From a virus, in IMG/VR virus record IMGVR_UViG_3300042453_002354, positions 64,001-128,000 of that record: 64,000 nucleotides of DNA; one strand, written 5' to 3'. Position 1 is the stretch's first letter. The number at the start of each line of letters is the position of its first letter. Positions 1 through 64,000 of this stretch are shown here, piece after piece. Below the pieces are notes generated by a model. That model had not been told where the DNA came from. It was given only the letters and a program-made list of their open reading frames with translations, and made no database searches. The position numbers and the translations under genes are program-made.

Positions 1-165
1 TTTCCTTCGATCAAATACATCACCCAAATGAAATACGTGTTGAATGTCGTTCTGCTTCATTCTTGGTATGAAGTCATCACGAAGATATTCAATACAAAAC
101 TGTGAGAAAAATTGAGAATCATTTCTCACACCAATATGCTGATCTGCTATAATTCCTACTTTCAT
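1..165 (-). CDS. gp47: Recombination endonuclease subunit (gp47/SbcD-like), 5' part only, runs off the window
   Basis: Manual translation from ATG at 165 gives MKVGIIADQHIGVRNDS...HVFHLGDVFDRRK, with metallophosphoesterase DxH and GD motifs. It abuts the gp55 stop, matching T4-like gene order. Confidence 0.9.
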   Translation of the reverse strand, partial: MKVGIIADQHIGVRNDSQFFSQFCIEYLRDDFIPRMKQNDIQHVFHLGDVFDRRK

Positions 166-765
166 CTATTCTATCAACTTATTGATCTTTTCTTTACTCT
201 TTGCTTTTTTGGCAAAGTTGTTAGTTTCAAATTGTTCGATATATTTTCTCATATTAATATCTGCATACTCACTGCCATATCTCAAATTGCCGTCAATACC
301 TTCACTGCCCTCAGCATCTCTCAATCCATTTTCAATACTTTTATATTTGATGTATAAATGCTGCTTCTCTTTTTTTATTCTTCTAACAAATGCCCAAGTA
401 ATGATTTGGGTAAAATAAGCAAATGGATTATTACTTTTTTCTGGATCAAAATTATCAATATACAATAAACAGTTCTCTATACCATCTGCTATCATATCAT
501 CTTTAAATGGATAATTAGCGAATCCTGGAGAATTACTAAGTTTATGTGCAATTTGGGTTATCATTAAACCTATTTCATCAGGAACAGGTGGTAAATCTGG
601 TATAGTTGCACGACGATTAGACTTTAATTGTTCTACATAAGGCTTCCGCAATTCGGCAAATTCTTTCATTGCCTCGAAAAATCTTTTATTGTCCACATAA
701 TGAACAACTTCTTTTTTCTTTGTCTTTGGTTTTACAACCCTTTTAATTCTTCTTATTGTCTTCAC
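166..765 (-). CDS. gp55: Late-transcription sigma factor
   Basis: HYVDNK, FANYPFKDDMIADGIENCL and NFDPEKSNNPFAYFTQI..AF.RRIKKEK are gp55 hallmarks. GTG start. Confidence 0.95.
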   Translation of the reverse strand: MKTIRRIKRVVKPKTKKKEVVHYVDNKRFFEAMKEFAELRKPYVEQLKSNRRATIPDLPPVPDEIGLMITQIAHKLSNSPGFANYPFKDDMIADGIENCLLYIDNFDPEKSNNPFAYFTQIITWAFVRRIKKEKQHLYIKYKSIENGLRDAEGSEGIDGNLRYGSEYADINMRKYIEQFETNNFAKKAKSKEKINKLIE

Positions 766-802: not shown

Positions 803-831
803 AGATTACTAAAAATAATCAACAATGTCAA
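803..831 (-). promoter_or_regulatory. Putative sigma70-type promoter upstream of gp55
   Basis: Minus strand reads TTGACA, 17 nt, TAATCT. Confidence 0.45.
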
Positions 832-871: not shown

Positions 872-1034
872 TCTCCTTACCGCTAAAAGGAGATTTTGAA
901 TCATTATGAATACAATAAAATACAGAAAGTATTAGATGATTTGCGACGAAGGAGCAAATCATGTGCGAAGCACACTATAATTAAATACAATAAAATACAA
1001 AACGAAATGACGAACGAAGTGAGGAATGTAGTTT
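872..1034 (+). other. Intergenic cluster of hairpins and direct repeats (candidate origin or ssDNA signal)
   Basis: Hairpin at 872-893; 16-bp direct repeat AATACAATAAAATACA at 909-924 and 984-999; three cGAAg-loop hairpins at 936-962, 962-974 and 1000-1034. Confidence 0.6.
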
Positions 1035-1113
1035 AGAAAGATTGTATATAATTAACACACAAAAAATGCTGTTGTCAAATTTATTTTTCAACAAAATGTC
1101 TAATACCAGACAA

Positions 1114-1524
1114 TTATTGAAAAGTGTCTTCATCATCAAATTTATAGGTATCGAAAAACATCTTTTTGTGGAAATAGTCACTAATATAATATTCAGCATC
1201 ATTATAACTATTAATGTAGAGATCTATATACTCTTTTTTTGGTTTAAAGAATGCCAATACTTTATCTCTAGGTATTAAAGCTACGGTAGAATCTGAAAAA
1301 GGAATCCAGTCCAAAAGCTGTATGTTATAGTGTCCTTCAATTTCGTCGTATTCAGAAGTTAGTAGTTTTGGCGCTCCTACTAAAACAACACTATCTATAT
1401 TTCCCACAACTGCAAATTTTTTCTCTTCTTCGGGAAATACATAGCAAATTAAATCTTCTCTAGTCATCAATTTAATGACTTTAATATTTTCTATTTTGTT
1501 ATTTACTGGTAAATGTTTAGGCAT
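1114..1524 (-). CDS. Conserved T4-like protein downstream of uvsW (Sm/SH3-like fold)
   Basis: IKVIKLMTREDLIC...WIPFSD motif and position typical of environmental T4-like phages. Its start overlaps the uvsW stop. Confidence 0.65.
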   Translation of the reverse strand: MPKHLPVNNKIENIKVIKLMTREDLICYVFPEEEKKFAVVGNIDSVVLVGAPKLLTSEYDEIEGHYNIQLLDWIPFSDSTVALIPRDKVLAFFKPKKEYIDLYINSYNDAEYYISDYFHKKMFFDTYKFDDEDTFQ

Positions 1525-63941: not shown

Positions 63942-64000
63942 AACAATGATCTCCAAGATAAACAATTTTTCTATAATTAAATTATCACACAATCAAACTA

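Follow-up and report, generated by a model that had tools for sequence, protein, structure and literature searches.

Integron attC sites, recombined by the integrase IntI, fold and recombine as their bottom strand, and in phage T4 the origins oriF, located in uvsY, and oriG, in gene 34, each combine a middle promoter that depends on MotA with an unwinding element downstream of it. The DNA mini-hairpins d(GCGNAGC) and d(GCGNNAGC) described by Hirao and co-workers, among which d(GCGAAGC) has a documented exceptional stability with a Tm of 76.5 °C, are of a type found at the complementary-strand origin of phage G4, at RSF1010 ssiA and in the early promoters of phage N4 (PMC13037366). T4-like phages also carry PeSL terminator-promoter cassettes (PMC2839356, PMC4122927), and such junctions gain and lose modules (PMC4122927). 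Here we analysed a window of 64,000 nt, bases 64001–128000 of the 156,877-bp IMG/VR virus record IMGVR_UViG_3300042453_002354 (G+C 35%; phage record 92% complete), and in it a cluster of three hairpins, H1, H2 and H3, upstream of gene 55, which encodes the late sigma factor gp55 of this T4-like phage. A preliminary description of this DNA had placed the hairpins and a 16-nt direct repeat at 872–1034 and had read them as a single-stranded DNA (ssDNA) signal of the phage itself; on reading the sequence we found H1, H2, the G.A-symmetric H3 and the 16-nt direct repeat all present as claimed. All three hairpins lie inside a 255-nt insert specific to this lineage, and we tentatively favour the reading that it is an imported, non-coding element made of hairpin modules and carried by the phage as a passenger. 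The hairpins, the direct repeat and the limits of the insert are as follows, in window positions.

936–962, plus strand: H1, nine perfect pairs (inverted repeat I9) around the 9-nt loop GACGAAGGA
962–974, plus strand: H2, 5-bp stem with a GAA loop, containing GCGAAGC at 965–971
1000–1034, plus strand: H3, a purine-symmetric pseudo-hairpin of 10 Watson-Crick and 6 G.A pairs with a GAA loop
909–927, plus strand: direct repeat copy 1 (family D1), with two AATACA hexamers 10 nt apart
984–1002, plus strand: direct repeat copy 2 (family D1)
833–1087: lineage-specific insert of 255 nt containing all hairpins, where distant relatives have short spacers
828–837: left copy of the 10-nt direct repeat TCAACAAAAT (family D3), whose TCAAC (828–832) abuts the insert
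1088–1097: right copy of that 10-nt direct repeat (family D3), whose TCAAC (1088–1092) abuts the insert
833–856: left inverted end, AAAATAAAT (833–841) and TTGACA (851–856), inverted repeats I8 and I5
1071–1087: right inverted end, TGTCAA and ATTTATTTT (1079–1087), inverted repeats I8 and I5

Our reading is carried by the status of this sequence as an insert, by its inverted ends with a flanking direct repeat, by its match to a family of hairpin modules in other genomes and by the presence of the same purine loop on the folding strand of attC. The hairpin site falls within a 348-nt gap (766–1113) that separates gene 55 from a 136-aa gene, both on the minus strand; this gap is the second longest intergenic region of a genome in which 182 of 205 crude open reading frames (ORFs) lie on the minus strand. 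Among IMG/VR records and metagenomes, 103 distinct distant gp55 relatives share the gene order (in 102 of the 103 the ORF upstream of gp55 is a homologue of the 136-aa gene by jackhmmer), with a gap of 36–85 nt, median 69, against the 348 nt of the phage. Because all 103 have only 36–85 nt at this place, the extra ~260 nt represent a recent lineage-specific insert and not a conserved T4-like replication signal. When the insert and one TCAAC are taken out, 88 nt remain, in which a weak terminator-like hairpin (1097–1112, minus strand) is followed directly by TTGACA-N17-TAATCT ahead of gp55. The insert is bounded by a 9-bp perfect inverted repeat, lengthened by TTGACA/TGTCAA, with TCAAC on either side (10 nt counting the overlap). 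As a whole it is predicted to fold into a closed multi-branch structure on either strand, its ends paired (z −3.1 and −2.5), and purines make up 65% of its plus strand (genome 46%), a value in the top 0.4% of 140-nt windows that makes its composition look foreign.

Close relatives of the phage came down to two contigs in our metagenome and IMG/VR searches, L002/L182 (92% identity over 10 kb) and L214 (95.6% over 7.3 kb). Both differ from the phage within the gap, at 16–19 positions that all fall outside 929–1040, leaving a 112-nt block identical and the hairpins invariant. Because the three available sequences are identical over 929–1040, no covariation count is possible within the phage lineage. 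The two copies of the direct repeat agree over 19 nt with one mismatch and precede H1 and H3; the 16-mer has no further occurrence in the genome, and the relatives vary the spacer between the AATACA hexamers while leaving the hexamers themselves unchanged.

The hairpin cluster is not due to chance. Only one hairpin of the H1 type (three or more outer pairs and a tandem GA, then one or two inner pairs around a GNA or GNNA loop) exists in the 157-kb genome. GCGNAGC stemmed by 4 bp or more is likewise found a single time, as H2, which touches H1; together H1 and H2 fold with a z of about −4.5. None of 2000 local dinucleotide shuffles attained the 16 consecutive Watson-Crick-or-G.A pairs of H3, and a G.A-tolerant run of that length is unique on the plus strand of the genome and equalled once on its minus strand. 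It is true that the bare 7-mer GCGAAGC stands at chance frequency (2 per strand in the genome), that H3 has no predicted stability and that one equally long palindrome exists elsewhere, as would be expected if this were ordinary AT-rich intergenic sequence. Against the pairing of two adjoining hairpin types that are each unique in the genome, the folding and shuffle results and exact identities of 19–24 nt to structured repeats in many genomes, we consider that explanation extremely improbable. The density of CGAA, also considered as a signal, was rejected: no 100-nt stretch of the genome has more than the five found here, yet the runner-up has four, which is marginal.

The preliminary description proposed that these structures fold fully only on the plus strand, the template for the surrounding genes. 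The neighbouring genes do lie on the minus strand, and H3 is indeed absent from the inverted-repeat listing, as predicted for standard repeat finders. The strand-specific folding itself was not confirmed: under standard parameters H1 and H2 are equal on both strands (−9.9 kcal/mol on the plus strand versus −9.4 on the minus strand as DNA, −14.8 versus −13.4 as RNA), and for H3 either DNA strand scores 0 kcal/mol, the RNA −2.6 kcal/mol (z = −0.3). Nearest-neighbour parameters have no term for mini-hairpin or sheared G.A stability. Since standard parameters score H1 and H2 alike and H3 at nil, any strand asymmetry has to come entirely from the unusual stability that GNA loops and sheared G.A pairs confer. 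The H1 loop can be drawn in this manner, as G.A, A.G and C-G enclosing GAA, so that H1 has the module form of outer Watson-Crick pairs, tandem GA facing GA, one or two Watson-Crick pairs further in, and GNA or GNNA as the loop.

This module recurs, with 19–24 nt of identity to H1, in genomes far removed from the phage. In a set of one genome per prokaryote species, the H1 19-mer TTTGCGACGAAGGAGCAAA occurs at 72 loci in ~55 bacterial and archaeal species, whereas ~4 are expected for a random 19-mer. In marine gammaproteobacteria (Shewanella sp. OPT22, Pseudoalteromonas and Colwellia) and in DPANN/CPR (candidate phyla radiation) genomes it caps imperfect palindromes of attC-like form. OPT22 encodes four integron integrases above the curated cut-off, one with an internal stop, and the bottom strand carries the purine loop in two of its attC arrays, whose orientation is fixed by the integrase and the cassette ORFs, and in one Pacearchaeota contig. 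Only some attC sites carry the H1 tip in the OPT22 chromosomal integron arrays L423 (C35:89000–101000) and L424 (C37:1–5000).

A different setting is found in 11 alphaproteobacterial contexts, where the identical hairpin lies 5–9 nt before the starts of rpsB, infB, rpmA, rpoB, rpoC, rplF and fusA; because of this position, the GGAG of the H1 loop would act there as a ribosome-binding site. In several alphaproteobacterial and Rickettsiales-like genomes, core-operon spacers (nusA–infB, S8–L6, rpoB–rpoC, S7–EF-G and L21–L27; loci L344, L346, L348, L356, L359, L363, L367, L368, L387, L388 and L394) hold a long hairpin of short tandem repeats, with a repeat unit that differs per spacer, and after it comes the identical 19-nt hairpin as ribosome-binding site for the following gene.

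Gut Clostridia carry the module in ordered arrays, in which 7-nt spacers (ACTTCAC or ACATCAC) alternate with short hairpins. These are of three types, namely H1, simple GC-GNA-GC hairpins resembling H2, and units of 17–18 nt with tandem GA on both arms that resemble H3. The core of H3 (1010–1023) is identical over 14 nt to one array unit and fits a covarying alignment with 11 clostridial units. In this alignment pairing holds in 95% of cells, compensatory changes affect three of the five pairs, and little or no variation is seen in the four G.A columns; the observed score was reached in 0 of 500 shuffles. These arrays were seen at L341:4900–5400(−), L400:1–400(−), L374:3000–3400(+) and ~20 further Clostridia/Eubacteriales loci, following a rumA-type 3' end or fragment and preceding a gene for a four-helix-bundle protein. 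Within them, left GTGAAGT heptamers with plain hairpins face right ACTTCAC heptamers with G.A-zipped GNA-loop hairpins, an arrangement that would allow heptamer pairing into a ladder of four-way junctions. Rfam contains no family for the H1-bearing genomic contexts or the arrays.

Tandem repeats of 39 and 107 nt in Flavobacteriaceae bacterium SJ88 (L354:1870–2430 and L357:5243–5512) also contain the H1 hairpin, matching the phage H1 at 24 of 24 nt with the same 7-bp stem. Together with a matching low G+C, this identity is a weak hint that the host of this uncultured phage may be a flavobacterium. Among viruses, the IMG/VR scan for the H1 loop with three closing pairs returned mostly chance matches; one match was a giant-virus contig with a 14-bp stem. 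Three IMG/VR contigs (L333:3072–3102, L334:11163–11193 and L335:150–180; 39% G+C) share another repeated element, in which the H1 loop sequence and GCGAAGC occur in one GC-rich stretch beside a GTCGAC-rich palindrome. In the phage genome itself, a 10-bp perfect hairpin at 63994–64022 (its last 22 nt being window positions 1–22) was rejected as a related element and is a coding look-alike: it is coding, being part of the gene downstream of gp55, and its minus-strand loop GATCGAAGG resembles the H1 loop, a likeness that looks coincidental because the loop is made by Arg codons, in the Asp-Arg-Arg-Lys of the HLGD motif region. Judging from these sequence comparisons, G.A-zipped hairpins with cGAAg loops are a real and widespread module type, one natural setting of which works as folded ssDNA. 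The proposal of selected, strand-asymmetric ssDNA mini-hairpins is thereby partly upheld, by the attC bottom-strand tips and the invariant G.A columns of the arrays; the role in phage replication, priming or packaging attached to it is not.

A model uniting these data is that the 255-nt sequence at 833–1087 entered, in this lineage alone, a short spacer that has the terminator of the 136-aa gene on one side and the gene 55 early promoter on the other, having been assembled from G.A-zipped, GNA-looped mini-hairpin modules of a family that would extend across bacteria, archaea and large viruses. It may have arrived as a miniature mobile element, or through recombination with foreign, possibly host, DNA, and transposition or foreign-DNA recombination into the gp55 upstream spacer would be the most economical account, one to which we give slightly less than even weight. 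The hairpins would then serve the element itself, folded on the purine-rich plus strand for a host enzyme, and not phage replication; the insert would be a passenger whose effect is at most a longer and more structured untranslated region before gene 55. A bolder version, which we regard as improbable, is that the insert is still active, represents a kind of miniature mobile DNA not described before, which moves as a folded single strand, and belongs to the same module family as the attC caps. Its plus-strand G.A-zipped GNA-loop hairpins would in that case be recognised by a host or phage enzyme, and the abundant recombination and replication ssDNA of a T4-like phage could provide a route of spread.

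Several observations weigh against an imported passenger. No second copy of the insert was found in the phage genome, and beyond the H1 module it is unmatched in five H1-bearing genomes, in phage records and in IMG/VR; the predicted empty-site junction was not found in IMG/VR, and no relative with an empty site came to light. The phage record encodes no tyrosine recombinase (in a search whose control was positive in 14 of 14 genomes) and no Y1 transposase, and any mobility of the insert would for this reason depend on host functions. Inverted ends of at least 9 bp with a flanking direct repeat of at least 5 bp appeared in 0 of 1500 shuffles, by a test framed after both had been seen, and the ends, A/T-only plus TTGACA, may be the upstream parts of promoters in degenerate form instead of the ends of a transposon. 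The genome excess of the H1 19-mer, 72 loci against ~4, has no scrambled-loop control; in IMG/VR, stems of at least 6 bp occur in 6 of 41 H1-loop hits versus 3 of 82 for the reversed-loop control (p ~0.04), a weak difference; and the three covarying pairs of the array units are not independent events, because the units are related to one another. Finally, the 112-nt block identical in both relatives hints at constraint, tempered by the six identical runs of at least 112 nt in the 10-kb comparison; as proof of constraint the block was rejected, since runs as long occur that often and it is only marginal within the intergenic region.

Other origins of the insert were also sought. Rfam, ARAGORN and BLAST against phage records gave no match for the insert region, and a 20-nt AT-rich match in a Flavobacteriaceae genome was rejected, having no extension. 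The insert resembles the start of one early-cassette gene of the phage at 17 of 18 nt (898–915) and shows A-rich matches at 835–850. As an inverted, decayed copy of the early cassette it was nevertheless rejected, with a local alignment score of 34 against a shuffle maximum of 30 and an nhmmer cassette profile that found no match here at E up to 10.

The neighbouring genes and the candidate coding and regulatory features are listed below.

166–765, minus strand: gene 55, late sigma factor gp55 (PHROG 234, E 1.6e-50)
1114–1524, minus strand: 136-aa gene, function not assigned
Upstream of this gene pair, 0.5–2.5 kb from the hairpins, minus strand: UvsW-type helicase and UvsY genes
803–831, minus strand: candidate early promoter of gp55 (TTGACA, 17 nt, TAATCT), read from sequence
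1097–1112, minus strand: weak terminator-like hairpin 3' of the 136-aa gene, 5-bp stem then TTTTG, unflagged by the terminator scan
872–893, plus strand: terminator-like hairpin, 7-bp stem then TTTTG, the sole such site within 600–1300
896–1036, plus strand: 46-aa ORF with a TTG start, doubtful as a gene
961–984, plus strand: 7-codon mini-ORF, its start 6 nt past the GGAG of the H1 loop

Two promoter classes were recognised in the phage, 11–16 early cassettes TTGACA-N17-GATACT (137–152 kb) and 17 minus-strand late promoters TATAAATA, and neither occurs inside the insert on either strand. The early cassettes (genome 137736–151862, minus strand; 11 exact, up to 16 by profile) measure ~95 nt. In them an A-rich stretch leads into TTGACA, a 17-nt spacer that is itself conserved, and GATACT, after which come a conserved leader rich in purines and a Shine-Dalgarno sequence. 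A separate small ORFan of 57–199 aa follows each copy, in the manner of a PeSL-like mobile regulatory cassette family. The candidate gp55 promoter bears only a loose likeness to them and is missed by the cassette profile. In the distant relatives, a tandem TTGTCAA motif is conserved 20–45 nt before the gp55 start (L016:2940–3000, L063, L069 and most of L003–L161). Its opposite strand reads as a near-consensus TTGACA-N17-TATAAT promoter, perfect in L016, and this promoter-like site is directed away from gp55, antisense to the upstream gene. As to the 46-aa ORF, its residues 18–40 are identical at 11 of 23 positions to distant gp55 proteins (gp55 residues ~121–146). It was rejected as a gp55 fragment or mimic: it is the top non-self hit of the gp55 profile among 2300 six-frame ORFs, with a non-significant E of 0.33.

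These features bear on two explanations in which the region is transcribed. The hairpins might belong to a unit transcribed from the plus strand, antisense to the adjacent genes, that makes a small RNA or expresses a short ORF (the 7-codon one at 961–984 or the 46-aa one at 896–1036) with its ribosome-binding site in the H1 loop. The purine-rich plus strand does resemble the sense-strand leaders of the phage, the same hairpin precedes start codons in alphaproteobacteria, and here an ATG follows the GGAG of the H1 loop by 6 nt. The 46-aa ORF is open in the relatives with 3 of 4 substitutions at third codon positions, the only terminator-like site (872–893) is on the plus strand, and the changes A888G and A891G in the relatives convert pairs of that hairpin to U.G or T.G on the plus strand and to C.A on the minus strand, a hint that may favour the plus strand. 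Yet a conserved plus-strand promoter is absent: the TTGACA at 851 is TTAACA in the relatives, has no −10 element, and no TATAAATA is present. Searched against 5.8 billion proteins, the 46-aa ORF returned no homologue; it has a codon score of 0.036 per codon, in the null range and placed between null ORFs and real small genes, four Arg codons that are all rare (CGA or AGG), and a Shine-Dalgarno sequence, the AAGGAG preceding its TTG by 3 nt, that is buried as the 3' arm of the 7-bp hairpin at 872–893; the mini-ORF has just 7 codons. We therefore judge a plus-strand unit unlikely. Conversely, the element could act in minus-strand RNA, as part of a long gene 55 leader whose hairpins and C-rich, G-poor stretch would stabilise, process or terminate read-through from the uvsY–uvsW operon and leave gene 55 on its own promoter, as in the PeSL modules of T4-like phages. 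All neighbours are on the minus strand, which is certainly transcribed here unless the weak terminator at 1097–1112 is efficient; H1 and H2 fold equally well on that strand; the insert sits exactly between a terminator-like hairpin and a TTGACA-N17 promoter; and PeSL modules mark insertion and deletion sites in T4-like phages (PMC4122927). This idea meets the objections that on the minus strand H1 and H2 have no T-run, unlike the real intergenic terminators of the phage, which are GC-rich stems flanked by A/T runs, that the G.A symmetry of H1 and H3 turns into C.T there and that the two substitutions disrupt the hairpin at 872–893. The early-cassette profile has no match at the site and 103 relatives regulate gene 55 without the element, so that we hold a leader function to be quite unlikely.

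The reading first put forward, a plus-strand ssDNA signal of the phage's own for origin function, primase or helicase loading, or packaging, draws on the mini-hairpins at the G4 origin, RSF1010 ssiA and N4 promoters, and H2, with its 5-bp stem and GAA loop, fits the geometry of the N4 hairpin promoter used by the virion RNA polymerase, a 5–7-bp stem with a 3-nt purine loop (PMC13037366). Further points in its favour are the H1 purine loop on the ssDNA-folding strand of attC sites and the four AATACA hexamers in phased pairs; the location of T4 oriF in uvsY could also be cited. It was, however, not supported. Cumulative GC skew falls steadily from end to end of the genome, with no switch or turn near 64.9 kb. 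The hairpins are present in two close contigs only, without variation, and the 103 distant relatives lack the insert, while H1 and H2 fold equally on both strands; by its own terms, which named missing conservation or covariation in relatives and equal folding of the two strands as evidence against it, the origin reading fails. In addition, the element is single-copy and recent in origin, and neither a MotA activation domain nor a T7/N4-type RNA polymerase was found in the phage record, by searches that had no positive control. The T4-type primase and helicase loader are not known to require signals of hairpin form. A signal of this kind is thus very unlikely, and for the phage there is no evidence of an origin beside uvsW and gene 55, the site being a recent insert absent from relatives.

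Taking the insert as an imported passenger, comparison with described systems shows partial likenesses to each. The resemblance to T4 oriF and oriG is one of neighbourhood alone (uvsY and uvsW 0.5–2.5 kb away), at a site unconserved among relatives; a middle promoter with an unwinding element of their kind was not found here, nor was a promoter of a known phage class in the insert. The setting, precisely between a terminator-like stem-loop and a TTGACA-N17 promoter, is that of PeSL cassettes. Unlike these, the insert has no credible same-strand ORF, its hairpins differ from the cassette stem-loops of the phage, and the cassette profile finds 16 copies at 137–152 kb and none at 64.8–65.1 kb. 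Miniature inverted-repeat transposable elements (MITEs), repetitive extragenic palindromes and bacterial interspersed mosaic elements (REP/BIME) and the end hairpins of IS200/IS605 resemble it in being small, intergenic and little coding, with inverted ends, a short flanking repeat and internal hairpins. Terminal inverted repeats (833–841/1079–1087) with a target-site duplication (TCAAC) are present as in MITEs, a comparison framed after they had been seen; dispersed copies or presence-absence polymorphism were not found in the genome, IMG/VR, phage records or the five H1-bearing genomes. In contrast to MITEs, the phage insert is single-copy, has A/T-only ends and has no known transposase partner.

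The comparison with integrons is closer at the level of the hairpin. The H1 19-mer equals the apical part of attC-like palindromes in OPT22 and the Pacearchaeota contig. An attC site is recognised by core sites bounding an imperfect palindrome of ~55–140 nt, and the insert was rejected as attC itself: the palindrome around H1 ends at 9 bp, with no R'' (RYYYAAC) or R' (GTTRRRY) core sites, and the phage, in contrast to an integron, has no cassette array and no tyrosine recombinase in its record. A 19-nt purine-looped hairpin with tandem G.A pairs is thus common to attC tips, alphaproteobacterial ribosome-binding sites, clostridial arrays, Flavobacteriaceae repeats, a giant-virus contig and a T4-like phage. 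If these prove to be one family, integron sites, small palindromic inserts and phage intergenic DNA would be linked by a shared single-strand fold, and the question of which enzyme reads that fold becomes testable. With the DNA mini-hairpins of Hirao and co-workers no link to priming or transcription was found in the phage, and the likeness is one of structure (PMC13037366). Tandem G.A pairs outside the core set H1 and H3 apart from the mini-hairpins, with which their loops share a C-GAA-G or AC-GAA-GT core and a possible sheared-type G.A pair, and H2 contains the exact GCGAAGC, with the two G-C pairs closing a GNA or GNNA loop by which d(GCGNAGC) and d(GCGNNAGC) are defined.

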